In this document: one piece after another, positions 6,903 through 51,599 of the stretch
Numbering within the stretch: the first letter of the stretch is position 1
Layout: each line of letters begins with the position of its first letter
From: Escherichia phage HX01
Sequence record: NC_018855.1
Length of the DNA: 64,000 bases
Direction: 5' to 3' (one strand)
Notes under the pieces: generated by a model
Database searches by the model: none
What the model was told of the DNA's origin: nothing
The model's input: only the letters and a program-made list of their open reading frames with translations
Position numbers and translations under genes: made by a program

Positions 6903-7589
6903 ATGAATAGTTCTAAAGTGTTTAATAGTCAAGCTCGTGCAGTAGGTGGTTTCGCTGGTAAAATTTCTAACGATAAAATCAAAAACGAACCTATGTTCTT
7001 CAACAGCTCGTTAGCCTTCGCTTTTGATAATGGTGGCCCTATTACTCGCAGCTTCATCATGAACCTACCAGATGATTGGAACACCGACCAGGTTGTATTT
7101 GATTCACGAGTCCACATGCTGATGCCTGGTTGGTATCCTGCTATTCCTGGATATCACCATGATGACGTACCACGCCCTGATATTCCAGTTGGTCAACACT
7201 TTATTACTGCAGGACAACCTGATTATGACAATCCTCGCTATTTGTCTGAACATATTCTTGGTCTTGTTAACGCTGATGTGTGTCCTACTCATTTTGCAAC
7301 AGGAACTGCAGAGTTCAGTCAGATTCCTGATGGCGAACTTATCTATCGTCAGTGGCACAAAGAAGTCCTCGAAAAAATTGAAAAAGGTGAACTAGAGAAA
7401 TGGGAAGCTCCAGATCGTACTCTTCTTCAGTTTGATTGGCAAACATGGCACACTGGTTCTCGTGCAATTAGTAACGGATGGCGTTGGTTCGGACGTGTAT
7501 CTCGTAATACAGACCGAGTTAAAAAGATTACCAATGAAATTCGTGTCAATGCTCAAGTTTATCTGGAATTCCCTATGGAAGGCTGGTAA
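6903..7589 (+). CDS. hypothetical protein
   Basis: 228-aa ORF, translationally coupled. Confidence 0.6.
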   Translation: MNSSKVFNSQARAVGGFAGKISNDKIKNEPMFFNSSLAFAFDNGGPITRSFIMNLPDDWNTDQVVFDSRVHMLMPGWYPAIPGYHHDDVPRPDIPVGQHFITAGQPDYDNPRYLSEHILGLVNADVCPTHFATGTAEFSQIPDGELIYRQWHKEVLEKIEKGELEKWEAPDRTLLQFDWQTWHTGSRAISNGWRWFGRVSRNTDRVKKITNEIRVNAQVYLEFPMEGW

Positions 7590-8080
7590 TGATTAACAAA
7601 ACATATTGGTCTAATATAGACGATAGCAATGAAGGTATTTCATACTATTCAGTAGATTGGACAGGATGTCCATCCTACTTAGTGAAAAATATTTGCCAAG
7701 AATTTAAAATCGACCAGCCAGCAGGTATTATCGTGAACAGATACATTAATGGATATCAACCTATCGATGAAGTAATACGAACAACTCAAGCTGAGCTTGA
7801 AAGGTTTTTCAATAAGTGCCAATGGATAACAGGATGGATTATATTTGTACCATCTATATGGTTTTTCAGTACTAAGGTGAGTTCTTTCGGTTTTGTTGAT
7901 ATTATTGCTATCTTATTAGCATCTAGTATCATAAGTGTTGTTGGTGGCATCATTGGCGGCGGTACCGCCGCCATCATTATTAATCTTGTTAAAAGTAGTT
8001 TACAAGAACATAAAGACAAGATAAAAGCCAAGAATAATGAAGTTGAACGTTTTATTACCGAATGCAGGAATTTGAGATGA
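7589..8080 (+). CDS. membrane protein with glycine-zipper TM segment, C-terminal ERFITECRNLR
   Basis: 163 aa; VVGGIIGGGTAAIII. Confidence 0.6.
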   Translation: MINKTYWSNIDDSNEGISYYSVDWTGCPSYLVKNICQEFKIDQPAGIIVNRYINGYQPIDEVIRTTQAELERFFNKCQWITGWIIFVPSIWFFSTKVSSFGFVDIIAILLASSIISVVGGIIGGGTAAIIINLVKSSLQEHKDKIKAKNNEVERFITECRNLR

Positions 8081-8313
8081 GTATAGCAATTTACATTAAA
8101 TCAGAATCATGTGATTCTTATCTGTATTCCTATGATACCGGAACGTCAGAAGAGAAAATCAAAGAAGATTTAGAAAGCGACTTGGATATGTTCCGACCTA
8201 TTTCTGATTATATGGTCCAAATATCTGATAGTGAAAGTCCGTCAACAGAAACATGTGTTGAAATTATTATACGAGATATCTTTAAACAATCATGGGACCG
8301 AGATGATGAGTAA
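8077..8313 (+). CDS. hypothetical acidic protein
   Basis: ORF track 8062..8313; ATGA overlap start at 8077. Confidence 0.5.
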   Translation: MSIAIYIKSESCDSYLYSYDTGTSEEKIKEDLESDLDMFRPISDYMVQISDSESPSTETCVEIIIRDIFKQSWDRDDE

Positions 8314-8761
8314 GAAAAATAAAGTGAAAGAACTATCAGCCGGTATTATTTTCCTTACCGAAGATAAAGAATTATTCATGGGGCGTGTAACTGGTTCTCG
8401 TCCTAAAGGTTCTTTAGCTCATCGGTGGGATATTCCTAAAGGTCGTGTCGAGCCCGGTGAATCTCCTATCGAAGCCGCTATTCGTGAATGCGAAGAAGAA
8501 ACTGGGTTTACACAATATGACCCTGCCTTCCTGAAAGACCTAGGTGAACATCATTACTCAGACAATAAGAATATTCACCTGTTCCTATATACCATCCCTG
8601 TAGAGCACGAGCAATTCAGAAATAGTGTTTGTAATTCCTATCATACATTCCCAGACGGACGTCAGATTCCTGAATTTGATGCATTCGCTTTAATTAAACC
8701 TTCTCAATGGGAATATGTAATGGGCAAATCATTATATAAGGTGCTCACTACCCTCCTATAA
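8303..8761 (+). CDS. nudE: Nudix hydrolase (T4 NudE / e.1-like)
   Basis: Nudix box GRVEPGESPIEAAIRECEEETG; lies just upstream of lysozyme as in T4; start trimmed to ATG 8303. Confidence 0.8.
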   Translation: MMSKKNKVKELSAGIIFLTEDKELFMGRVTGSRPKGSLAHRWDIPKGRVEPGESPIEAAIRECEEETGFTQYDPAFLKDLGEHHYSDNKNIHLFLYTIPVEHEQFRNSVCNSYHTFPDGRQIPEFDAFALIKPSQWEYVMGKSLYKVLTTLL

Positions 8762-10687: not shown

Positions 10688-11227
10688 ATGAAAACATTTT
10701 TAACTGGACCTTATCTATCCCTGATGAATGCTTTTACACACCATTCTGATGCTAGAGTAGAAGAAATTTGTAAGAACGGTTATGTCCCACCATTTGAAGA
10801 CATACTCAAGCAGTACTGTACACTTCGTTTAGACGGTGGCAGACAATCAGGTAAATCCACTGCAGTAACTAATTTTGCTGCTAATTGGCTGCACGACGAT
10901 GGAACAGTTATTGTTCTTTCTAATACTTCAGCTTATGCTAAAATTTCTGCTGGCAACATTAAAAAAGAATTTTCTCGTTATTCTAGCGACGATATTCGAT
11001 TCCGTTTATTTACTGATTCTGTCCGTAGTTTTATTGGCAATGAAGGTTCTAAATTCCGTGGATTAACGCTTTCTCGTATTCTGTATATAATTGACGAGCC
11101 TATTAAAGCTCCTGATATGGATAAGATTTACAACATACATATTAAAACAGTCCAACACTGTTGCAAAAGCAAATATTGCATCAGTGGTATTGCTCGTCCT
11201 CAATTTTTTGTGATTGGAATGCAATGA
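10688..11227 (+). CDS. P-loop protein (Walker A GGRQSGKST), function unknown
   Basis: ORF track 10640..11227; ATG 10688 after SD AGAGAGAA. Confidence 0.55.
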   Translation: MKTFLTGPYLSLMNAFTHHSDARVEEICKNGYVPPFEDILKQYCTLRLDGGRQSGKSTAVTNFAANWLHDDGTVIVLSNTSAYAKISAGNIKKEFSRYSSDDIRFRLFTDSVRSFIGNEGSKFRGLTLSRILYIIDEPIKAPDMDKIYNIHIKTVQHCCKSKYCISGIARPQFFVIGMQ

Positions 11228-11532
11228 TGACCACTATTGAAGTTTTTGAGTATTGTTATAACAGCCCAGTATGCAATAAAAGGGCTCTTGTAGAAAATTA
11301 TGAGATTTACCATTTTAAACCTAAACGATACCGTTTGACTAAAGGTCCGTTCGCAGGGCAGCAGGTTCTTTGTACTGCTCCTAATGCACGGTTGATGACT
11401 AGTATTCCGCATTTCAAAATGGAATTTATTGATGGGCCATTTAAAGGATTAATCACTCAAAGTTTAATGGCGTTTAATTCCGACCCATTTTTGATTAAAG
11501 AAAAAACTTGGATAAATTTATTTTCTAATTGA
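11224..11532 (+). CDS. hypothetical protein
   Basis: ORF track 11161..11532; ATGA-coupled start 11224. Confidence 0.5.
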   Translation: MMTTIEVFEYCYNSPVCNKRALVENYEIYHFKPKRYRLTKGPFAGQQVLCTAPNARLMTSIPHFKMEFIDGPFKGLITQSLMAFNSDPFLIKEKTWINLFSN

Positions 11533-11538
11533 GGTTAT

Positions 11539-11901
11539 ATGAAAGCATATCAAATTCTTGAAGGTGTACATAAAGGCACTATTTATTTTGAAGACGGTAC
11601 TCAAGCCCGGATTATCGTCTCTAAGACTTTTAAAGAAGACGCTATTGTAGACCCGGAAATTTTCTACGGTTTGAATGCCCGTGAAATTGAAATTGAACAT
11701 CAACCTAAAGTTAAAATTGAAGGTGGTCAACACCTGAACGTTAACGTTCTGCGTCGTGAAACTCTGGAAGATGCAGTTAAGCATCCGGAAAAATATCCGC
11801 AGCTGACCATCCGTGTATCCGGTTATGCAGTTCGCTTTAACTCTCTGACTCCGGAACAGCAGCGCGACGTTATCGCTCGGACATTTACCGAGAGTCTATA
11901 A
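11539..11901 (+). CDS. grcA: autonomous glycyl-radical cofactor (GrcA/YfiD-like)
   Basis: C-terminal [63 protein letters not shown] with glycyl-radical signature RVSGY; a T4 YfiD homolog (Y06I) is known. Confidence 0.85.
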
Positions 11902-41064: not shown

Positions 41065-43776
41065 ATGAAAGAATTTTACTTAACGGTTGAACAGATTGGT
41101 GATTCAATTTTTGAACGTTACATCGATTCTAACGGCCGTGAACGTACTCGTGAAGTAGAATATAAACCATCACTGTTTGCTCATTGCCCGGAAAGTCAGG
41201 CTACGAAATATTTCGATATCTACGGTAAGCCGTGTACTCGTAAGTTGTTCGCCAATATGCGTGATGCCTCCCAATGGATTAAACGCATGGAAGATATCGG
41301 ACTTGAAGCACTTGGCATGGACGATTTCAAATTGGCGTATTTGTCTGACACTTATAACTATGAAATCAAATACGACCATACAAAAATTCGTGTGGCTAAC
41401 TTCGACATCGAAGTAACATCTCCAGACGGGTTCCCTGAGCCGTCACAAGCAAAACATCCGATTGATGCTATCACTCATTATGACTCAATTGACGACAGGT
41501 TCTACGTATTTGATCTATTGAATTCTCCATACGGTAATGTAGAAGAATGGTCTATTGAAATCGCTGCTAAGCTTCAAGAACAAGGCGGTGATGAAGTTCC
41601 ATCCGAAATTATCGATAAAATCATTTATATGCCGTTCGATAACGAAAAAGAATTGTTGATGGAATATCTCAACTTCTGGCAACAGAAAACTCCTGTCATT
41701 TTGACTGGATGGAACGTTGAGTCATTTGATATTCCGTATGTGTATAACCGAATCAAGAATATTTTTGGCGAATCCACAGCAAAACGGTTGTCACCACATC
41801 GTAAAACTCGTGTTAAAGTTATCGAAAACATGTATGGTTCTCGTGAAATCATTACATTGTTCGGTATCTCTGTTCTTGATTACATTGACCTTTACAAAAA
41901 ATTCTCTTTTACCAATCAACCGTCATATTCTCTGGATTACATTTCAGAATTTGAATTGAACGTTGGTAAACTGAAATATGACGGCCCTATTTCTAAGCTT
42001 CGTGAAAGCAATCACCAACGATATATTTCTTATAACATTATCGACGTGTATCGTGTATTGCAAATTGATGCTAAACGTCAGTTCATTAACTTGAGCTTGG
42101 ACATGGGTTATTATGCTAAGATACAGATTCAATCTGTGTTTAGCCCAATTAAAACATGGGATGCTATTATTTTTAATAGCCTTAAAGAGCAGAACAAGGT
42201 GATTCCACAAGGTCGTTCTCACCCGGTTCAACCTTATCCCGGCGCTTTTGTTAAGGAACCTATTCCAAATCGATACAAATATGTAATGAGTTTCGACCTT
42301 ACATCTCTGTATCCAAGTATTATTCGCCAAGTGAATATTAGCCCAGAAACAATAGCAGGAACGTTTAAAGTAGCTCCATTGCATGATTATATTAACGCTG
42401 TTGCTGAACGTCCTTCTGATGTGTACAGTTGTTCTCCTAACGGCATGATGTATTATAAAGATCGTGATGGTGTAGTTCCAACTGAAATCACTAAGGTCTT
42501 TAATCAACGTAAAGAACATAAAGGTTACATGCTTGCAGCTCAACGTAATGGTGAAATAATTAAAGAGGCATTGCATAATCCTAATCTTTCTGTTGACGAA
42601 CCATTAGATGTTGATTATCGTTTCGACTTCAGTGATGAGATTAAAGAAAAGATTAAAAAGTTGTCTGCTAAATCTCTTAATGAAATGTTGTTTAGAGCTC
42701 AACGTACTGAAGTTGCAGGTATGACTGCCCAAATTAACCGTAAATTGCTTATCAACTCACTTTATGGTGCACTTGGCAACGTTTGGTTCCGTTATTATGA
42801 TTTGCGTAATGCTACTGCAATCACAACATTCGGGCAAATGGCTTTACAGTGGATTGAACGTAAAGTTAATGAATATCTGAATGAAGTTTGTGGCACAGAA
42901 GGTGAAGCTTTCGTTCTTTATGGTGATACAGACTCTATTTACGTATCTGCTGATAAAATTATCGATAAGGTTGGTGAATCTAAATTCCGTGATACCAACC
43001 ATTGGGTAGACTTCTTAGATAAGTTTGCACGTGAACGTATGGAACCAGCTATTGATAGAGGTTTCCGTGAAATGTGTGAATACATGAACAATAAACAACA
43101 CTTAATGTTCATGGACCGAGAAGCTATCGCTGGGCCTCCACTCGGTTCTAAAGGTATTGGTGGATTCTGGACTGGTAAGAAACGTTATGCATTAAACGTG
43201 TGGGATATGGAAGGAACCAGATACGCCGAACCTAAGCTTAAAATCATGGGTCTAGAGACTCAGAAATCTTCGACTCCTAAAGCAGTACAGAAAGCTCTTA
43301 AAGAATGTATTCGTCGTATGCTTCAGGAAGGCGAAGAATCATTACAAGAATATTTTAAAGAGTTTGAAAAAGAATTCCGTCAATTGAATTATATTAGCAT
43401 CGCGTCGGTATCTTCTGCGAATAACATTGCTAAATATGATGTAGGTGGATTCCCTGGTCCTAAATGCCCGTTCCATATTCGTGGAATTCTGACGTATAAC
43501 CGGGCTATCAAAGGTAATATCGATGCACCGCAAGTTGTAGAAGGTGAAAAAGTATATGTTCTGCCTTTACGTGAAGGAAACCCATTCGGTGATAAATGTA
43601 TCGCATGGCCTTCTGGTACTGAAATCACAGATTTAATTAAAGACGACGTACTTCATTGGATGGACTACACTGTTCTCCTTGAGAAGACATTTATTAAACC
43701 ACTTGAAGGATTCACATCAGCAGCGAAACTCGATTACGAGAAGAAAGCATCTCTGTTCGATATGTTCGATTTTTGA
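41065..43776 (+). CDS. 43: DNA polymerase gp43 (family B)
   Basis: 903 aa; exonuclease and polymerase motifs (YGDTDS); N-terminus matches my recollection of RB69 gp43. Confidence 0.97.
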   Translation: MKEFYLTVEQIGDSIFERYIDSNGRERTREVEYKPSLFAHCPESQATKYFDIYGKPCTRKLFANMRDASQWIKRMEDIGLEALGMDDFKLAYLSDTYNYEIKYDHTKIRVANFDIEVTSPDGFPEPSQAKHPIDAITHYDSIDDRFYVFDLLNSPYGNVEEWSIEIAAKLQEQGGDEVPSEIIDKIIYMPFDNEKELLMEYLNFWQQKTPVILTGWNVESFDIPYVYNRIKNIFGESTAKRLSPHRKTRVKVIENMYGSREIITLFGISVLDYIDLYKKFSFTNQPSYSLDYISEFELNVGKLKYDGPISKLRESNHQRYISYNIIDVYRVLQIDAKRQFINLSLDMGYYAKIQIQSVFSPIKTWDAIIFNSLKEQNKVIPQGRSHPVQPYPGAFVKEPIPNRYKYVMSFDLTSLYPSIIRQVNISPETIAGTFKVAPLHDYINAVAERPSDVYSCSPNGMMYYKDRDGVVPTEITKVFNQRKEHKGYMLAAQRNGEIIKEALHNPNLSVDEPLDVDYRFDFSDEIKEKIKKLSAKSLNEMLFRAQRTEVAGMTAQINRKLLINSLYGALGNVWFRYYDLRNATAITTFGQMALQWIERKVNEYLNEVCGTEGEAFVLYGDTDSIYVSADKIIDKVGESKFRDTNHWVDFLDKFARERMEPAIDRGFREMCEYMNNKQHLMFMDREAIAGPPLGSKGIGGFWTGKKRYALNVWDMEGTRYAEPKLKIMGLETQKSSTPKAVQKALKECIRRMLQEGEESLQEYFKEFEKEFRQLNYISIASVSSANNIAKYDVGGFPGPKCPFHIRGILTYNRAIKGNIDAPQVVEGEKVYVLPLREGNPFGDKCIAWPSGTEITDLIKDDVLHWMDYTVLLEKTFIKPLEGFTSAAKLDYEKKASLFDMFDF

Positions 43777-43816
43777 TATAATGACATGGACGGTAAACTA
43801 ATTAAATGAGAGAAAT

Positions 43817-44452
43817 ATGAAAACTACTCCTATTACTATCGCTATTGACGCAATCATAAAACAAGCTTCTTCTTTGGTCGCTATGGCCAAAGTAATTAGT
43901 CAAAACCCTGCTCGTTATAATGCTATTCTAGAAACTCTTCGACGCCCAGGACTTAGTAATTATGAAAGCCGAGTAATTATTACAGGTGTTGGTAAGAATG
44001 CTAATATTGCAACTAAAGCTTCTGAGACATTTGCTTCACTCGGTATCCCGAGTATGTACTTGAACACTGGACATTATTCTCACGGTGATGCAGGATTCAT
44101 TGCGCCTAATGATGTGTTGATTCATATTAGTCGTTCTGGTAAAACTGAAGAAATGATAGGCGTGGCTAAGCATCTTAAAATGATTCGTCCGAACGTCAAA
44201 CAGATTCTGTTGCATTGTAACCCGGACATTCCACAAGAATACGAAGCTCTTTTTGATTATACGTTCTGTACAGGCATCGCAGTAGAGGTTGATGAGAATT
44301 CTCTGGCTCCGACCATGTCCACTACATTGTTGTTAGCGCTTATCGATACGTTTGCTATCAACCTTTCGTCTGAACGTGGATTTACCTCTAATGACTTCCT
44401 TAAGTTCCACCCTGGCGGTGCACTAGGTGCCATGTTACGAGGCGAACAATGA
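43817..44452 (+). CDS. SIS-domain sugar-phosphate isomerase (arabinose-5-phosphate isomerase / phosphoheptose isomerase-like)
   Basis: ITGVGKNANIATKASETF and HISRSGKTEE match SIS-domain signatures. Confidence 0.75.
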   Translation: MKTTPITIAIDAIIKQASSLVAMAKVISQNPARYNAILETLRRPGLSNYESRVIITGVGKNANIATKASETFASLGIPSMYLNTGHYSHGDAGFIAPNDVLIHISRSGKTEEMIGVAKHLKMIRPNVKQILLHCNPDIPQEYEALFDYTFCTGIAVEVDENSLAPTMSTTLLLALIDTFAINLSSERGFTSNDFLKFHPGGALGAMLRGEQ

Positions 44453-44592
44453 AAGCAATAACAATAGGACTTTTACTATTGATGCTTGTCATGACTATCT
44501 ACTGGAGCTTAACGACTCCAGTAATGATTCCGACTCTTATAATCGGATGGATTATGATTGGACTACAAGCAAAGTATGAATGCTTTAACTAG
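44449..44592 (+). CDS. 47-aa membrane peptide
   Basis: ATGA-coupled to SIS gene; two hydrophobic stretches; read manually. Confidence 0.4.
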   Translation: MKAITIGLLLLMLVMTIYWSLTTPVMIPTLIIGWIMIGLQAKYECFN

Positions 44593-44633
44593 AATAGTGT
44601 ACAATACTCCTACTTACCAATGAGGACCACAAC

Positions 44634-46319
44634 ATGAAAAAAGCTGTTATTCTTGGTGCTGGACTGGCAACTCGTTTGTATCCAATAACGCATCATATTC
44701 CTAAGGTGCTTGTTAACTATAAACAAGACACTATTCTGAGCAATTTGTATACAATTTATTCTGACCTTGGCGCAGATGAAATTATTGTAGTAGTTCATTC
44801 AAAATTTGCTGAAACTGTTCGAGCTTATTGTGAGCAAGAAGGGTTCAATGTGACTATTCGTACAGTTGATGAAGCGTATGGTTCTGCTTATGCTCTTGCT
44901 AAATTGCACAAAGATTTAGACGGCCATAATGTAATTGTTAACTGGTGTGATATTATTCCTGATTTTGGTTCATGGTCTTGGAATGTTAACGCAATCTATG
45001 TTAAAGGTGACGAATGTCGATATAATTTCGACGGTGAAAATATCACTAACGTAGGTTCAACAGGTGGTAATGTTGTAGGAATTTATCAGTTCAAAGACTG
45101 GGAATTCTATATGGGTTCTACCGATGAGGAAATTCATGAATACTGCAAAGGACGTGATTTCGTAGAATTCCTTTACGGCAGTGCATTCAATAAATCAGAG
45201 CTTATGAATCTAATTGATTTAGGTGATATGCCTAAACTTGAAAAGGCTCATGAAGTTCGTGAACTTAATCGTAGTTTTAATGCCGTTGAAATTGGTGAAG
45301 AAACTGTAACTAAATTCGCATTAACCGAACAAGGCCGAGCTCTTCAGAAAGATGAGATTTCATGGTATCTTAAAGTGAAATCAGATTCAGTTCCTCAGTT
45401 AGTTTCTGTTAATGAAAATAACTTTGAAATGGAACGCATTAAAGGTAAGCCGGCATTTGAATATATTAAATCCAAATCGAGTCTTGCTCGTCCACAAATT
45501 GTTGATGCAATTTTAGATGCACTGAAATTCAGCACAGACACTTATTTTGTAAGTCCTGAAACTGTTCGTCGTGATTTCACTAAAGAATTCTATACTAAAG
45601 TTATTGATCGTTGTGAAAGTATTCAACCATTGATTGATTCATTTGGTAAAATCACACATGTGAACTACACTAAGATTGGGCGTCTGAAGCCAATGTTGAA
45701 ACAAGCTTTAGAACACCTTATTCGTTATCATAACCGTTCTCAGGGACAGTACTCTGTTATTCATGGTGACCCGAACTTCAGTAATACTATGATTACTGAT
45801 AATGGTGAAGTCAAGTTTATCGACCCTCGTGGATATTTTGGTGAAACCAAGATTTATGGACCAAAATTGTACGACGAAGCTAAAGTGCTTTATGCTGTTT
45901 CAGGTTATGATGAATTCAACGCTAATCCGACCTGGGGACAGTTTACTATTGACGAAACAACTTGTAATGTGTCTATTAACATCAATCCATTAGTTTACAA
46001 ATATGGAAAGATGAGTTCGTTTAACGAGTATCATCATTTGGCAGTGGCAATTATCTGGATTGCATTAGGTGGTTATTTCAAGAATAATCCACTTAAAGCG
46101 GTAGCCGCATATTATAAAGGTATGGAACTTCTGACTAAGCAATTACGTAACATGGGCCGTGTACTTCAGGACGGCTCTATTAGTTATGACGTAGCAGAAC
46201 CTGTAACGGCTACTCTGATTACAAAAAATCCTGGTAAATGGGTACTAACTGATAAAGAAACTGGTGTTTCCTATCGTCCAATCGGTGGCGATATCACTCA
46301 TCAATGGGAACGAATCTAA
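44634..46319 (+). CDS. bifunctional sugar-1-phosphate nucleotidyltransferase / sugar kinase
   Basis: N-terminal GAGLATRLYPITHHIPKVL (G-x-G-T-R-x-x-P motif); C-terminal HGDPNFSNTMI and FIDPRGYFG (APH/ChoK-like kinase motifs). Confidence 0.75.
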   Translation: MKKAVILGAGLATRLYPITHHIPKVLVNYKQDTILSNLYTIYSDLGADEIIVVVHSKFAETVRAYCEQEGFNVTIRTVDEAYGSAYALAKLHKDLDGHNVIVNWCDIIPDFGSWSWNVNAIYVKGDECRYNFDGENITNVGSTGGNVVGIYQFKDWEFYMGSTDEEIHEYCKGRDFVEFLYGSAFNKSELMNLIDLGDMPKLEKAHEVRELNRSFNAVEIGEETVTKFALTEQGRALQKDEISWYLKVKSDSVPQLVSVNENNFEMERIKGKPAFEYIKSKSSLARPQIVDAILDALKFSTDTYFVSPETVRRDFTKEFYTKVIDRCESIQPLIDSFGKITHVNYTKIGRLKPMLKQALEHLIRYHNRSQGQYSVIHGDPNFSNTMITDNGEVKFIDPRGYFGETKIYGPKLYDEAKVLYAVSGYDEFNANPTWGQFTIDETTCNVSININPLVYKYGKMSSFNEYHHLAVAIIWIALGGYFKNNPLKAVAAYYKGMELLTKQLRNMGRVLQDGSISYDVAEPVTATLITKNPGKWVLTDKETGVSYRPIGGDITHQWERI

Positions 46320-46705
46320 TGCACCGTGTAGAAAACATGCTTAATCTTTGTTTTGATGTCGATGATTGTATAACAGAGTGGAATAACAACCGTGATTACG
46401 TGAACTTCAAACCAGACGTCGAAATGGTGACTGCCATTAATGCCCTGTACGATGCAGGGCATACCATAACGCTTTACACTGCTCGCGGTATGAAGTCAGT
46501 CGGTCCTGGTCGTATAGCAATTGACATTCTCCCAAGTCTGATTCAGAACTTGGCAAACATTGGATTGAAGTACCATAATTTGCTAACACATAAACCAGTA
46601 TATGATTGGATTATCGACGACAAAGCTATGCGTCCTGACGAATTCAAAGCTCTTATGAATAAAGGCGAATTCGAAACATTTAAATCATATAAACCGAATC
46701 TATAA
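46319..46705 (+). CDS. HAD-superfamily phosphatase
   Basis: Motif I FDVDDCIT; TAATG-coupled start at 46319. Confidence 0.65.
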   Translation: MHRVENMLNLCFDVDDCITEWNNNRDYVNFKPDVEMVTAINALYDAGHTITLYTARGMKSVGPGRIAIDILPSLIQNLANIGLKYHNLLTHKPVYDWIIDDKAMRPDEFKALMNKGEFETFKSYKPNL

Positions 46706-46762
46706 TAATTTAAGTAAGACCTGCAAAAACCATCGCGTCAATTAACGTGAGATGCAAAAAAA

Positions 46763-47923
46763 ATGAATACTTTTAAAATCGGAACGAATTTTGATTTAGC
46801 TCTTCTTGATAAAATCGTAGAGCTCAATAAAACTTATCCTAATAGCTTGATAAACGAAGTATACGGCTCTACAAGAGAAATGGCTTTTGTAGCAGCCAGA
46901 CCTGATTTTAGGCTTCCTGACGTTGACAAAAAGATGTTAGAAGATTATGTTAAACGTTGTAACGAATTAGGTATTTGCTTTAACTATACACTCAACACGA
47001 TAAATCCTGGTTCAAAAAGAGAACTAGTTGAGTGGAAGAAGAAAGCTATTCAGGATTATGTTCAGTATCTTTGGTCAATAGGCGTATGGCGTATTACTAT
47101 CGCTAACCCTGTTGTTATGGAAATTGTTCGTGAAGTCAATAAAGACATTGAGATTGAAGTTTCAACAATTCTACATGTCGATGCTGTAACTCAAATCAAA
47201 TACTTGCATGACCAATATAATATCAAAAAGGTCTGCTGTGGAATTCATAAGAACCGTTCAGTTTCTTTCCTGAAACGTGCAGCAGAGTTTTGTAATAAGA
47301 ACAATATAATATTTGAAGTTCTTGTAAATGAGTTCTGTTCTAATGCTGGTAAAGGGTACACAACACATTGTAGCTATCGTGACTCTTGCTATATTTTCCA
47401 TAGCACCGATGTTACAGTAGATGATGCCAAATCCTTAAATGGATATCCAATGCAACACTGTATTAAAGCTCGTGATACAGATCCATTTAACTGGTTGAGA
47501 ACTCGTTTTGTTCGTCCTCAAGATTTGAAACTTTATAATGATATTGGTATCACTCAATTTAAAGTTTCGGGACGTACAGGTAGCACAGACTACATTTTGA
47601 AAGTTCTTGAAGCTTATGCTTCTGAAAAGTTTGAAGGCAATTTGTTGGAATTGTGGAAGCCTTTAGAGACCATTTTCACTCTTGAAAATGAGACCGAGTT
47701 TTCACATACAGTAAATATTGAAACCTCTTTGTTAGACGGCTTTTTAGAAAAAAGGTGGTTCAAACATCCAGATTTCGATTGTGCTAATGAAATCTGCGGG
47801 ACGACGTGTACATATTGTGAAAGATATTATAAACGTCAGTTATCTAAAAATGGGTTATCAGAAAACTCTATATCTATTATTGATATAACTAACTCTGATG
47901 ACGCTTTGAGGTACCCAGAATGA
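46763..47923 (+). CDS. peptidase-U32-family-like protein with Cys cluster
   Basis: FKVSGRTGS resembles the U32 LKIEGRTKS motif; EFCSNAGKGYTTHCSYRDSC and C-terminal CANEICGTTCTYC. Confidence 0.5.
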   Translation: MNTFKIGTNFDLALLDKIVELNKTYPNSLINEVYGSTREMAFVAARPDFRLPDVDKKMLEDYVKRCNELGICFNYTLNTINPGSKRELVEWKKKAIQDYVQYLWSIGVWRITIANPVVMEIVREVNKDIEIEVSTILHVDAVTQIKYLHDQYNIKKVCCGIHKNRSVSFLKRAAEFCNKNNIIFEVLVNEFCSNAGKGYTTHCSYRDSCYIFHSTDVTVDDAKSLNGYPMQHCIKARDTDPFNWLRTRFVRPQDLKLYNDIGITQFKVSGRTGSTDYILKVLEAYASEKFEGNLLELWKPLETIFTLENETEFSHTVNIETSLLDGFLEKRWFKHPDFDCANEICGTTCTYCERYYKRQLSKNGLSENSISIIDITNSDDALRYPE

Positions 47924-48000
47924 TTTCTAGAAAAACTTTTAACCACCAACTTAACGAAGAGATTTTGACTATTAAAATTAACAGCAACGAACAAATTCTT

Positions 48001-48025
48001 AAAAAGGCCCATAAGGGCCTTTTTG
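48001..48025 (+). terminator. possible terminator
   Basis: AAAAAGGCCC-ATAA-GGGCCTTTTT; lies inside a possible 51-aa ORF. Confidence 0.4.
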
Positions 48026-48161
48026 AAACTAAAGCGGCTAAAGTGATTAAAGAACCTGTTCAACTAGAATACTAAGCCGAAGCTCTACGTTATATCAACA
48101 TCGCTAAGAAATTCAAATAAGCTTTATGAATTGAGTATATAATAACTGTATTGAGGTAAAC

Positions 48162-48878
48162 ATGGGAAAACATAACACAATGAAATATATTAAAGCCGCA
48201 GATTTTCAATCCGCATTTAAAGCTGTCAATCGTGAAATTTTAGAAAATCCACAGTTCATTACTGATTCTCGTATTGGACGTTGTAATGAAATTGGGTCTA
48301 TGACAGTAGTTGTTGATACCCCTTCATCATTCAAAATGACCGACCCACGTATTAATCGCATCTCTTATGAATATGCTGAAGATTTCTGGAAATTTATGAT
48401 TTCTGGTGGTACTGATGCAAAAGAAGCATTTAAGGCATATCCTAACGTCGCTAAATTTATTTCTAAACCTAAATCAGACGCTTTGCCTGCAAACTTCAAC
48501 ACTTTCTATGGTCCACGAATTGCGGCCCAGTTACCAACTCTTCTAAAAGAACTTAAAGAAAAACCTAACTCTCGAAGAGTTGTGTTCCAAATTCTAGAAA
48601 GTTCTGATCAGGCTTTGCTTGATTCAGACGAAACACTTGAATATCCATGTACTGACTCAGTGACTTATTATATTCGTGATGGTAAGCTTTATACCCACTG
48701 TCATATGCGTTCTCAGAACTGTGCTGTTGTTATGCAGTTGGATTTTTATCTCCAAGGAAAATTACTTCATTATATCGCTAACGAATGTGGTGTAGAAGTT
48801 GGTGATTATACTCATACCATGGTAAGTGCCCATGTGTTTGAACGTGATTTTGATTATGTTAAAGGATTCCTTGACTAA
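48162..48878 (+). CDS. 42: thymidylate-synthase-fold pyrimidine hydroxymethylase (gene 42-like, divergent)
   Basis: RRVVFQI, PCTDSVTYYIRDGKLYTHCHMRSQN, QLDF align to TS / dCMP-hydroxymethylase core motifs, with Asp at the cytosine-specificity position. Confidence 0.65.
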   Translation: MGKHNTMKYIKAADFQSAFKAVNREILENPQFITDSRIGRCNEIGSMTVVVDTPSSFKMTDPRINRISYEYAEDFWKFMISGGTDAKEAFKAYPNVAKFISKPKSDALPANFNTFYGPRIAAQLPTLLKELKEKPNSRRVVFQILESSDQALLDSDETLEYPCTDSVTYYIRDGKLYTHCHMRSQNCAVVMQLDFYLQGKLLHYIANECGVEVGDYTHTMVSAHVFERDFDYVKGFLD

Positions 48879-49777
48879 TGGCTATTTTCCGCGTACCTAT
48901 TTTGAGTATGCGGTCTTATGAAACTGGACAGTATGCTATCCTTAAGGATGGCAACTTCCAACTTCATTTGCACCGTGCTAATCCGGGTGATGTGATTACA
49001 TATCCACGTAATGCATCTGATATTAAAGAATGTGAACGTCTTTTCCCAGAATTTAAGTTTGTTCCATTATGGTATAAAGATAACGCATATAACACTCGTA
49101 AATATTTCTGGTCTGAAAATGAATTTGTGGTTGATTCATTAATTGATTATTATGATTGTGATTTTCTAATCACAGATATCACTGGATATGACGGCACTTT
49201 TGACGTAGAATTCAATTTCAATATCACTGCAGACCCTAATAAACCACGTTTTTATATTGACGAATTCTTAAAAACCGACATGTTGTCTGTTAATCGTTCA
49301 CTTCAAACTACTGTGTTGAATGAACGTCAAAAAGAAGTGCTGGTTAACGCAGGTGCAGATGGTAATAAGATTATCGTAACGCAGAAAGTTATACGTCCTT
49401 CCATCATGCAGCGTCTTGTAGGTGATTTGGCCCCTATTCATCTAGATGGTATTTTTCATCCATTTCGAATTAGTGACCCGTGTTATCGTTTTGAACAAGT
49501 GGTTGAATGCGCAATTCAATTAGGTCAACCGCTTTATATAACCGATCCAAATAATAGCTTCGACAGAAATAAGTATCCTGAAGAAGCACTGATTCGAATT
49601 TTTAAACCAACTAAAACTGAGTACTATCAAATTCTTAAAGGAAGACCGAAGATTCAATATTTCGAAAATCCTGAAGAAGTATTCCATCCAGGTCTTGGCG
49701 AGTTCATCTACTTTAACGCTTTAATTTCTTCACCGTATAATATACCTAAATATGAAGATGTCGTAATCGAGGAATAA
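48878..49777 (+). CDS. hypothetical protein; candidate DNA glycosyltransferase by position
   Basis: 299 aa in the slot where T4 has beta-gt; no diagnostic motif recognised. Confidence 0.35.
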   Translation: MAIFRVPILSMRSYETGQYAILKDGNFQLHLHRANPGDVITYPRNASDIKECERLFPEFKFVPLWYKDNAYNTRKYFWSENEFVVDSLIDYYDCDFLITDITGYDGTFDVEFNFNITADPNKPRFYIDEFLKTDMLSVNRSLQTTVLNERQKEVLVNAGADGNKIIVTQKVIRPSIMQRLVGDLAPIHLDGIFHPFRISDPCYRFEQVVECAIQLGQPLYITDPNNSFDRNKYPEEALIRIFKPTKTEYYQILKGRPKIQYFENPEEVFHPGLGEFIYFNALISSPYNIPKYEDVVIEE

Positions 49778-49778
49778 A

Positions 49779-50327
49779 ATGGCTAAAATTATTTTAGTAG
49801 ATGGCCCAGATAATGCTGGTAAAACAACTTTCATTAATGACATAATGGAAATTAGTGAAAGATATGTAAAGATTGATTTCCCTAAACGAACAGTTGATGG
49901 ACGTTTCGATGTTAAGTCTCGAAATGAAGTTGGCTGTTTCGAAACGATGTTGAATTATTTAGACCCTACTAAGATTTATCTGTTAGACCGTGGATATATT
50001 AGTAACTGGGTTTATGGACGTATTCGACAAGATGCGGACTCGGTTCTTGACGTTTATGAACAGGATTATGTTCGTCTTTGCCAAAACCATGATGTGTTCA
50101 CAATTATTTTAACACGTAACGAAATGACTGAAAGTTTTGAAGACGACCTTATTACTTTGTCTTCATTCGGTTTTAATACAGTCATTTCATATTTTGAAGA
50201 GTTTGCAATTCATAACGAAATCCAAACGTATCAATTACTTAATCATGATGGTGCTAACAAAGTTATAGGATTTAATGCAAGCGAACGTAATGGTTTGATT
50301 ACAGAAATTATCAAATGGGCTCGTTAA
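49779..50327 (+). CDS. P-loop kinase (nucleoside/nucleotide or small-molecule kinase-like)
   Basis: Walker A VDGPDNAGKTT, LLDRGY motif. Confidence 0.6.
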   Translation: MAKIILVDGPDNAGKTTFINDIMEISERYVKIDFPKRTVDGRFDVKSRNEVGCFETMLNYLDPTKIYLLDRGYISNWVYGRIRQDADSVLDVYEQDYVRLCQNHDVFTIILTRNEMTESFEDDLITLSSFGFNTVISYFEEFAIHNEIQTYQLLNHDGANKVIGFNASERNGLITEIIKWAR

Positions 50328-50426
50328 GAGCCTGTTTAAAGTTTTAAATGCTGTATAACCCTTAGTATATAATCATTTTATCTTTTAAACATGAGTAAAA
50401 TATAATGATGCCTATGGAAAAATACA

Positions 50427-51599
50427 ATGTCTGATTTAAAATCTCGTCTGATTAAAGCTTCTACTTCTAAAATGACTGCAGACTTGACTAAGTCTAAGCT
50501 GTTTAATAATCGTGATGAAGTCCCTACTCGTATTCCGATGTTGAATATTGCATTAGGTGGTGCACTGAATGCCGGGTTGCAATCAGGCTTAACTATTTTT
50601 GCTGCTCCTTCTAAACACTTTAAAACGTTGTTTGGACTGACCATGGTTGCAGCGTATATGAAGAAATATAAAGATGCAATCTGTTTGTTTTATGACTCAG
50701 AATTCGGTGCTTCGGAATCTTATTTTCGTTCAATGGGTGTTGATTTAGACCGTGTAGTTCATACACCAATTCAGTCAGTCGAACAACTTAAAGTTGATAT
50801 GACTAATCAGCTTGACGCGATTGAACGCGGTGATAAAGTTATTATCTTTATCGATTCAATCGGTAATACTGCATCTAAGAAAGAAACTGAAGATGCATTG
50901 AACGAGAAAGTTGTAGGTGATATGTCTCGTGCTAAGGCACTTAAATCTCTTTTCCGTATTGTGACCCCGTATCTGACTATTAAAGATATTCCGTGTGTTG
51001 CAATTAACCATACCGCAATGGAAATTGGCGGATTGTATCCTAAAGAGATTATGGGCGGTGGTACAGGTATTCTTTATTCTGCTAACACTGTATTCTTTAT
51101 CTCTAAACGTCAGGTTAAAGAAGGTACAGAATTGACCGGTTACGACTTCACGTTGAAAGCAGAAAAATCTCGTACAGTTAAAGAGAAATCTACTTTCCCG
51201 ATCACGGTTAATTTCGATGGTGGTATCGACCCATTCAGTGGCTTGCTAGAAATGGCAACTGAAATCGGTTTTGTGGTTAAGCCTAAAGCTGGTTGGTATG
51301 CTCGTGAATTCCTTGACGAAGAAACAGGTGAAATGATTCGTGAAGAAAAATCATGGCGTGCTAAAGCTACTGATTGTGTAGAATTCTGGGGACCTTTGTT
51401 TAAACACAAACCTTTCCGAGATGCAATTGAAACTAAATATAAACTAGGTGCTATCTCTTCTATTAAAGAAGTTGATGACGCTGTTAACGACCTTATTAAT
51501 TGCAAAGCAACAACTAAAGTTCCGGTTAAAACTTCTGATGCTCCGTCTGCAGCAGATATAGAAAACGACCTTGACGAAATGGAAGATTTCGATGAATAA
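50427..51599 (+). CDS. uvsX: recombinase UvsX (RecA-like)
   Basis: MSDLKSRLIKASTSK...AREFLDEETGEMIREEKSWRAK matches T4 UvsX. Confidence 0.96.
   Translation: MSDLKSRLIKASTSKMTADLTKSKLFNNRDEVPTRIPMLNIALGGALNAGLQSGLTIFAAPSKHFKTLFGLTMVAAYMKKYKDAICLFYDSEFGASESYFRSMGVDLDRVVHTPIQSVEQLKVDMTNQLDAIERGDKVIIFIDSIGNTASKKETEDALNEKVVGDMSRAKALKSLFRIVTPYLTIKDIPCVAINHTAMEIGGLYPKEIMGGGTGILYSANTVFFISKRQVKEGTELTGYDFTLKAEKSRTVKEKSTFPITVNFDGGIDPFSGLLEMATEIGFVVKPKAGWYAREFLDEETGEMIREEKSWRAKATDCVEFWGPLFKHKPFRDAIETKYKLGAISSIKEVDDAVNDLINCKATTKVPVKTSDAPSAADIENDLDEMEDFDE

Follow-up and report, generated by a model that had tools for sequence, protein, structure and literature searches.

A thymidylate-kinase-superfamily protein of Escherichia phage HX01 is a constant partner of the flavin-dependent 5-hydroxy-dCMP synthase and most likely its dedicated 5-hydroxy-dCMP kinase

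The window considered here, namely the whole 64,000-nucleotide stretch analysed from Escherichia phage HX01 (NC_018855.1), harbours on its + strand an ORF at positions 49779..50327 (stop codon included), which starts with ATG and encodes a protein of 182 aa, hereafter referred to as the kinase. A Shine-Dalgarno sequence, GAGGA, can be read directly from the sequence at 49769..49773 (+), i.e., 5 nt 5' of the kinase ATG, and the TAA of the upstream 299-aa ORF occupies 49775-49777; as only 1 nt separates this stop codon from the kinase ATG, the two genes are probably translationally coupled. The corresponding genes overlap by 4 nt in Thanatos (TH1_063/064) and by 13 nt in DLP3 and Ac42. On the 3' side, the uvsX recombinase gene (50427..51599, +), identified as an ORF and from the annotation in relatives, marks the downstream boundary of the cluster. 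The original prediction had placed the kinase between a candidate transferase and uvsX, which agrees with the 299-aa putative arabinosyltransferase found upstream and with uvsX starting at 50427, and the ORF lies exactly where it had located it, with the Walker A and LLDRGY it described, as checked in the ORF list and the sequence. Scanning positions 43500-50600 for promoters and terminators yielded no more sites than in shuffled sequences.

With respect to its lineage, many coliphages of the Mosigvirus (RB69-like) type match positions 44600-50400 at 97-98.6% identity, by which the window is assigned to Mosigvirus. The kinase shares 98.9% identity over 182 aa with RB69p045 (NP_861735.1) and has the same flanks, namely gp46:47 upstream and uvsX downstream; by identity and synteny, it is thus regarded as the ortholog of RB69 gp45. 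From their similarities, the genes around it can be recognised as the published arabinosyl-5-hydroxycytosine (ara-5hoC) cluster, where all members are encoded on the + strand: (i) a predicted SIS-domain arabinose-5-phosphate isomerase (43817..44452; RB69 gp55; Pfam SIS, 1.7e-10; syntenic with RB69p055), (ii) a predicted bifunctional sugar-1-P nucleotidyltransferase/APH-like kinase (44634..46319; RB69 gp52:53; AfhE-like; Pfam NTP_transferase, 8.5e-10, with weak APH-type matches; role from PMC13326640), (iii) a predicted HAD-type phosphatase (46304..46705; RB69 gp51; AfhF-like; TIGR01689, 4.6e-13; role from PMC13326640), (iv) a Peptidase-U32-family protein (46763..47923; RB69 gp50; Pfam PF01136, 6e-11; NCBIfam UbiU, 5e-4), (v) a ThyA homolog corresponding to the 5-hydroxy-dCMP (5hodCMP) synthase (48162..48878; RB69 gp48; Pfam Thymidylat_synt, 2e-15) and bearing the HMRSQN (D169N) signature, (vi) the putative first arabinosyltransferase of 299 aa (48878..49777; RB69 gp46:47; PHROG 3891; syntenic with RB69p047 and RB69p046), and (vii) the thymidylate-kinase-like kinase itself (PHROG 761; synteny). 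The flavin-dependent 5hodCMP synthase stands at the start of the arabosyl-5-hydroxycytosine DNA hypermodification, and the activity of the RB69 gp48 enzyme has been demonstrated, while the role of RB69 gp46:47 as first arabinosyltransferase is a proposal (PMC13326640). In the sugar route, i.e., Ru5P to Ara5P to Ara-1,5-P2 to Ara-1-P to UDP-Araf, all steps are assigned to homologs of gp55, gp52:53, and gp51 (PMC13326640).

Intact orthologs of the kinase occur in 342 phage genomes at 36-99.5% identity (tblastn, 50,697 phage records), and an alignment of 19 orthologs, in which the invariance of residues was judged, contains about 37 invariant columns that fall mostly in kinase motifs; for these two reasons, the ORF is a real gene rather than a chance ORF. 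The Walker A motif or P-loop, GPDNAGKTT (residues 9-17; 49803..49829, +), in which G9, D11, N12, G14, K15, and T16 are invariant, aligns to GLDRTGKTT of yeast thymidylate kinase (TMK) and GLDKSGKTT of vaccinia TMK. It comprises the TMK-type Asp, D11; in the human and yeast TMK structures, the Asp within the P-loop touches the deoxyribose 3'-OH. FPKR (residues 34-37; 49878..49889, +) follows strand 2 as the counterpart of the phosphate-binding FPxR motif of TMKs, with F34, P35, and K36 invariant and an alignment to KFPERS (yeast) and NFPQRS (vaccinia). LLDRGY (residues 68-73; 49980..49997, +), at the end of strand 3, corresponds to the TMK motif DR(Y/H/F) and aligns to MDRYVYS and VDRYAFS of the yeast and vaccinia enzymes; D70 and R71 are invariant in the 19 orthologs, and R71 remains so in a wider check across 70 distant relatives. 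After strand 4, a short segment made of R113 and the FEDDLI block (residues 113-125; 50115..50153, +), where R113, F120, D122, D123, L124, and I125 are invariant, may act as a LID, judging by its position.

Between these motifs lies a family-specific signature, GRF-x4-SRNEV-x2-FET (residues 41-56; 49899..49946, +), presumed to bind the acceptor, in which G41, R42, R48, N49, E50, V51, F54, E55, and T56 are invariant and which is the flexible, lowest-confidence part of the structure model. In HMMER alignments, TMKs show at this position an insertion of 16-20 residues relative to the kinase family profile, and the segment thus appears to stand where TMKs have longer thymine-binding helices. According to the model and HMMER together, the base-recognition region is about 20 residues shorter in the kinase than in TMKs and, as a consequence, the acceptor cannot be read from homology.

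As for the class of the protein, the HMM classification suggested in the original prediction failed with curated models: Pfam gave no PF02223 match, only sub-threshold AAA_14 and MMR_HSR1, the NCBIfam model TIGR00041 (DTMP_kinase) gave 15.3 bits against a cut-off of 83.25 and was thus not reached, and the Thanatos ortholog scored 24.3 bits against PF02223, whose cut-off is 27. A single-sequence phmmer search of the PDB with the kinase found nothing significant, and the profile of the 19 orthologs found only P-loop matches to RecA plus weak TMK matches. PHROG 761, annotated as “thymidylate kinase,” matched the kinase at 1.3e-44. A profile search among 1.84 billion representatives delineated a narrow family of 305 proteins at E<=1e-3 and 45 at E<=1e-10; the 70-sequence profile built from its matches reached YorR of SPbeta at 3e-16, the TMKs of yeast at 1e-11, Aquifex at 2e-11, vaccinia at 1.5e-10, and Staphylococcus aureus at about 1e-10, the TMKs aligning over the full length. 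The structure model likewise bears a closer likeness to solved TMKs than to other P-loop kinases, P-loop sugar kinases of the gluconate/shikimate-kinase type matched no closer in fold or sequence than nucleotide kinases, and no sequence or structural similarity of the T4 gp1 (1dek) type was found. In other words, Pfam and NCBIfam did not assign the protein, while PHROGs, the 70-sequence profile and the fold search all pointed to the TMK superfamily. Because only kinases appear among the leading sequence-profile and fold neighbours, and because the catalytic motifs of TMKs are invariant in the family, the protein is classified as a compact P-loop phosphotransferase of the thymidylate-kinase superfamily with an intact catalytic core; its initial reading as a kinase stands, and it is not a non-kinase NTPase. 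It is filed, on sequence grounds, as a member of this superfamily and of the RB69 gp45 orthologous group and not as a dTMP kinase, since the curated models failed and the thymine-binding element is absent.

The comparison with known proteins sharpens this picture. The solved TMKs, e.g., vaccinia A48R (2v54), yeast Cdc8 (1tmk), and S. aureus Tmk (4dwj), are 8-18% identical to the kinase, which is about 20-30 residues shorter. Where TMKs display at strands 2-3 a thymine-stacking Phe and an O4-binding Arg helix, “(L)F(S/C)ANRWE,” the kinase is devoid of it, its model showing a single helix (residues 45-58) between strands 2 and 3, and it possesses instead its own invariant GRF...SRNEV..FET signature; besides, the kinase is tied to a cytosine-modifying pathway and TMKs to the thymidylate pathway. 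YorR, from the Bacillus prophage SPbeta (PDB 2axp/3kb2), differs in that its P-loop lacks the Gly-Lys-Thr consensus, with DCCFKST instead, and in having neither the SRNEV..FET signature nor a 5hoC context. The 5-hydroxymethyluracil DNA kinase, 5-HMUDK (e.g., phage M6 gp54), is likewise a P-loop kinase of about 185 aa encoded in a phage pyrimidine-hypermodification cluster, and its co-occurrence with HhH glycosylase-like proteins recalls the kinase-HhH-GPD fusions found among relatives (PMC8989533). It acts on DNA, however, making a leaving group, a chemistry unsuited to the O-glycosylation of 5hoC, and the identification of the kinase as a 5-HMUDK was rejected, since M6 gp54 aligns over 23 P-loop columns only, without DR or FPxR (hmmsearch, 12.9 bits). 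The dNMP kinase encoded by T4 gene 1 (PDB 1dek/1del; RB69 gp159) would share with the kinase its proposed job, i.e., phosphorylating a 5-substituted dCMP for phage DNA, but the kinase was rejected as a gene-1 dNMP kinase for want of similarity to gp1 (1dek) in sequence and structure. No material difference separates the kinase from its listed counterparts, RB69 gp45, DLP3 gp78, and RL38J1 gp214.

The distribution of the kinase closely follows that of the synthase. Among the 50,697 phage records, 341 encode a synthase with 60% identity or more to that of the window, vs. 342 for the kinase, whose family forms 27 clusters at 90% identity in a 5.8-billion-protein database. When loci of T4-like phages were retrieved with the kinase as seed, 18 out of 20 had it grouped in one block with the genes for synthase, GT, phosphatase and bifunctional enzyme, the two exceptions being a 4.4-kb contig ending inside the cluster and MP1. 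The position within the block varies, as the kinase gene lies 3' of the GT gene in RB69, Ac42, DLP3, and Thanatos and 5' of the synthase gene in JS98, F48, and PSTCR6, either directly or with the U32 gene in between. In the reverse test, seeded by an alignment of D169N-type synthases from four lineages, 62 IMG/VR loci were retrieved with 28-97% identity to the synthase of the window, and 58 of them contained an ORF of the kinase family (hmmsearch, E<1e-4), always on the synthase strand and at a median distance of about 1 kb; in the remaining four, the contig is truncated, ending no more than about 1 kb 3' of the synthase gene. Two loci, L022 (28% identity, E 2e-4) and the weakly matching L021, were left out of the kinase family. 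The commonest layout in the 58 loci consists of the synthase, one GT-like ORF (about 300-440 aa) and then the kinase, and in 27 of them homologs of the arabinose-activation genes of the window were undetectable within 9 kb. A control scan of 291 kb and 483 ORFs matched only the kinase of the window and its MP1 ortholog; the gene-42 loci of Tequatrovirus and of an Aeromonas T4-like phage included among these controls, both with the hydroxymethylase-type MRSND motif, gave no match to the kinase family. Since it is present with D169N synthases even where arabinose genes are undetectable, the kinase is the partner of the 5hodCMP synthase and not of the sugar-activation genes. It is a constant member of the module built around this flavin-dependent synthase, and the initial view of a gene located next to the modification island has to be corrected accordingly.

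Several variants depart from this general scheme. The Morganella phage MP1 encodes an intact kinase ortholog with all invariant motifs, and a search for a synthase, which covered 150 of its 163 kb (all but bases 100001-113201), found none. PSTRCR_127, its genus-mate, possesses the full cluster, with a kinase to which that of MP1 is only 60% identical; MP1 therefore looks like a deletion derivative, which weakens the case it makes for a role independent of 5hoC. In the Providencia phage PSTCR6, two diverged kinase paralogs are encoded in tandem. Among the relatives, some eight representative clusters (E down to 1e-18) consist of a kinase domain fused to a C-terminal domain, in which a weak Pfam HhH-GPD match was obtained for two fusions, P0059 and P0060, and an MBD4-like motif, GLGKYAxDS...PxDKEL, for all five sequences inspected; one kinase fusion is located inside a 5hoC module, adjoining an FMN reductase gene. 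The order synthase-GT-kinase is also found in the Rhizobium phage RHph_I9, a member of the Pootjesviridae, to which RL38JI with its hexosyl-5hoC belongs as well; a MazG dCTPase and a further, gp1-like kinase are encoded nearby. The RHph_I9 counterpart of the HX01 kinase is only a weak match (E 2.5e-9 to the broad profile), where AR replaces DR.

The relation to the gene-1 dNMP kinase bears directly on the function of gp45. A T4 gp1 probe matches the annotated dNMP kinase of MP1 (38% identity over 238 residues) and found no match within the 64,000-nt window, a negative result that is meaningful because the probe does find the MP1 enzyme. In RB69, the gene-1 homolog is gp159, far from the kinase region (PMC13326640). 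The original prediction was thus right in considering gene 1 to be encoded elsewhere and the present protein to be an additional kinase. In vitro, RB69 gp159 converts 5hodCMP into 5hodCDP and, together with the gp48 synthase, is enough for 5hodC incorporation in E. coli (PMC13326640); as gp159 covers this step, gp45 would not be strictly required there. No biochemical test of gp45 was found in the literature searched, to which He et al. (2026) and Mahler et al. (2025) did not belong.

Taking these elements together, the kinase is most likely the module's own dedicated 5-hydroxy-dCMP kinase, an assignment of substrate we hold as somewhat better than even. ATP bound at the P-loop through K15 and T16, with Mg2+ coordinated via T16 and D70, would phosphorylate a 2'-deoxypyrimidine 5'-monophosphate held by D11, FPK(R), R71, and the GRF...SRNEV..FET segment. 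The likeliest acceptor would be the 5hodCMP delivered by the synthase encoded two ORFs upstream, and the product, 5hodCDP, would be converted by the host NDP kinase into 5hodCTP for the phage polymerase. The module would carry its own kinase wherever it moves, which would explain a second kinase in T4-like phages already endowed with a gene-1 dNMP kinase; we infer that this second enzyme reflects modular inheritance and not necessity. Regarding the two substrates originally envisaged, a modified nucleotide is favoured, the kinase following the synthase even without detectable arabinose genes, and a sugar is disfavoured because the published sugar pathway is complete without the kinase (PMC13326640).

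Another nucleotide step appears improbable, yet is the best placed of the other readings. The kinase could convert 5hodCDP into 5hodCTP or, without any specificity for 5hoC, act as a general dTMP/dCMP/dUMP kinase boosting dNTP supply, which would be in line with the fold and motifs of the TMK superfamily, with the intact copy in MP1, whose 150 kb examined yielded no synthase, and with the tandem diverged paralogs of PSTCR6, which would suit two steps or two substrates. Against this, the kinase accompanies D169N synthases almost without exception and is absent from the control loci, those of the hydroxymethylase type included, which favours a function specific to 5hoC; moreover, the thymine-binding helix region of TMKs is missing and, for the last step, the host NDP kinase is sufficient in E. 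coli (PMC13326640).

A little less probable again is an action on a glycosylated mononucleotide, where the GT would add the first sugar to 5hodCMP and the kinase would phosphorylate the bulky sugar-5hodCMP. On such a route, the gene-1 kinase could not take sugar-5hodCMP and the first glycosylation would be pre-replicative. The layout commonest in the 58 loci, i.e., synthase, GT-like ORF and kinase on one strand, the translational coupling of GT and kinase genes in the window, Thanatos, DLP3, and Ac42, and an acceptor subdomain smaller than that of TMKs, with possible space at C5, would all be compatible with it, as would the fact that the gene-1 kinase already handles 5hodCMP. It also fits the report that single GTs are inactive on 5hoC-DNA with UDP-Ara (Lee et al., PMC13326640), in a study whose experiments do not separate a mononucleotide from a post-replicative first arabosylation. 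On the other hand, gene order is not reaction order, the kinase is encoded upstream of the synthase and apart from the GT in JS98, F48, PSTCR6, and Proteus-type phages, MP1 retains the kinase without any GT, the later arabinosyl transfers take place on DNA and E. coli incorporates 5hodC as such (PMC13326640). In its fullest form, the synthase, GT and kinase triad would constitute a mononucleotide assembly line from which the polymerase incorporates an already glycosylated dCTP analogue. This is a long shot; if true, it would account at once for the presence of a second kinase, for the first GT having been reported as inactive on 5hoC-DNA and for a gene order maintained across unrelated viral lineages. 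We know of no precedent in phages for a glycosylated dNTP precursor.

A role at the DNA level, where the kinase would phosphorylate the 5-hydroxyl of 5hoC in DNA, in analogy to 5-HMUDK, act on DNA ends or serve as an ATP-dependent partner of the first glycosyltransferase (GT1), must be considered more doubtful still. It could find an echo in the relatives fused to a C-terminal domain (weak HhH-GPD in two, MBD4-like motif in five), one fusion lying within a 5hoC module, in the 5-HMUDK systems, where HhH glycosylase-like proteins likewise accompany a P-loop kinase (PMC8989533), and in the inactivity of GT1 alone on 5hoC-DNA (PMC13326640). Nonetheless, the validated 5-HMUDK, M6 gp54, has only a 23-residue P-loop in common with the kinase and no TMK motifs, and those of the kinase, namely P-loop Asp, FPxR, and DR, belong to the mononucleotide-kinase type; from the origin of the oxygen (PMC13326640), an aryl-type 5-O-phosphate would moreover be implausible in an O-glycosylation that keeps the bridging oxygen. 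Very little room is left for a kinase of the sugar pathway or of UTP supply, acting on an arabinose phosphate or recycling UMP/UDP for UDP-arabinofuranose, as the UDP-Araf pathway is fully assigned to the gp55, gp52:53, and gp51 homologs, 27 kinase-bearing loci have no detectable arabinose genes, the Pootjesviridae use hexoses yet retain an analogous kinase, and TMKs, rather than sugar kinases, come out as the best neighbours. A non-catalytic or regulatory NTP-binding protein, e.g., a scaffold in a dNTP-synthesising complex, is just as improbable: although the kinase scores below every curated kinase-model cut-off and its closest solved relative, YorR, is without known function, the P-loop Lys/Thr, the DR Asp/Arg and the Arg at the LID position are all invariant.

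Returning to the dedicated 5hodCMP kinase as the preferred reading, the gene and its predicted class are already known, since both stand in the literature: the listing of RB69p045 as a thymidylate-kinase homolog dates from 2021, and in 2026 it appears as a “nucleotide kinase” of the ara-5hoC cluster, in both cases by computation only. What is added here is the quantitative and controlled pairing of the kinase with D169N synthases across lineages, irrespective of the sugar genes, together with the reduced acceptor subdomain and the variants, namely the fusions, the tandem duplication and a kinase-only phage. As the kinase is obligately paired with the synthase, and not with the sugar genes, its role is narrowed to the metabolism of the 5hoC nucleotide. 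Arabosyl-5-hydroxycytosine, a hypermodification of phage DNA resolved only recently, affects resistance and sensitivity to restriction, CRISPR and type IV systems. In this respect, the D169N synthase and the kinase provide a two-gene signature for finding 5hoC-based modifications in metagenomes, the substrate of the kinase bears on where the first sugar is added, i.e., pre- or post-replicatively, and a co-expressed kinase may raise incorporation when engineering 5hoC DNA in vivo.

Beyond the kinase gene, the Escherichia phage HX01 window exhibits two single intact ORFs, at 44634-46319 (561 aa, the AfhE-like gene) and 48878-49777 (299 aa, the putative first arabinosyltransferase GT1), whereas in the RB69 reference both genes are split (RB69p053/052 and RB69p047/046, respectively). 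The RB69 splits have been stated in the literature to be sequencing errors, with which the unsplit ORFs of the window agree. Respective to GT1, the homolog in phage Thanatos, namely TH1_063 (L029, 5460-6362), is 48% identical to the product of 48878-49777 and was reported to display UDP-xylose pyrophosphorylase activity in vitro (PMC12838424), and no transferase activity on 5hoC-DNA was seen for the DLP3 homolog (PMC13326640); in view of these two reports, arabinosyl transfer is a candidate role of GT1.

On the + strand at 46763-47923, the window further encodes a protein of the peptidase U32 family, i.e., the ortholog of RB69 gp50 (Pfam, 6e-11), with a weak match to UbiU. Members of the U32 family include O2-independent C5 hydroxylases, namely RlhA, TrhP and UbiU/V, of which RlhA generates the 5-hydroxycytidine found in rRNA. 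While gp50 is labelled “sugar or heterocycle reductase” in a published table, an alternative role could be an anaerobic route to 5hoC complementing the O2/flavin-dependent synthase. Among the clusters compared, a gp50-type U32 gene is present in those of Mosigvirus, Thanatos, F48 and Gualtarvirus, and missing from those of JS98 and the Acinetobacter phages.

Relatives of the kinase occur in several other arrangements. In Providencia phage PSTCR6 (L032, MW057858), two paralogs of 186 and 199 aa lie in tandem (7359-7919 and 8004-8603), flanked by a phosphatase gene and a U32 gene; with a mutual identity of 46%, both are strong members of the kinase family retaining all motifs, and the pair could correspond to two substrates or two steps. 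Morganella phage MP1 (NC_031020; loci L017 and L023-L025), which carries an intact kinase ortholog, still encodes Alc-like, DenB-like and gp56-like (“dUTPase”) functions, the counterparts of which in T4 presuppose modified cytosine, and the full cluster is present in its genus-mate PSTRCR_127.

In other relatives of 311-357 aa, the kinase domain is fused to a C-terminal domain (protein clusters P0059, P0060, P0065, P0067 and P0069; L027, 10001-11074; L088 and L089, 11520-12455), which in P0059 and P0060 weakly matches HhH-GPD (Pfam). Since an MBD4-like motif, GLGKYAxDS...PxDKEL, is kept in all five fusion sequences read, the catalytic Asp appears to be retained. P0059 has a D169N-type synthase (MRSNN), a ThyA homolog of the 5-hydroxy-dCMP synthase type, on one side and an FMN reductase on the other, after which come SIS and AfhE-like genes. 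Host HhH-GPD enzymes, e.g., endonuclease III, excise 5-hydroxycytosine, and the fused domain might serve in the repair or protection of 5hoC/5hoU sites. In the metagenomic contig L027, an FMN-reductase gene (11068-11613) directly follows the kinase fusion, near the D169N synthase. This arrangement is consistent with 5hodCMP synthases being flavin-dependent, and it suggests that reduced flavin is, in some phages, provided by the phage itself.
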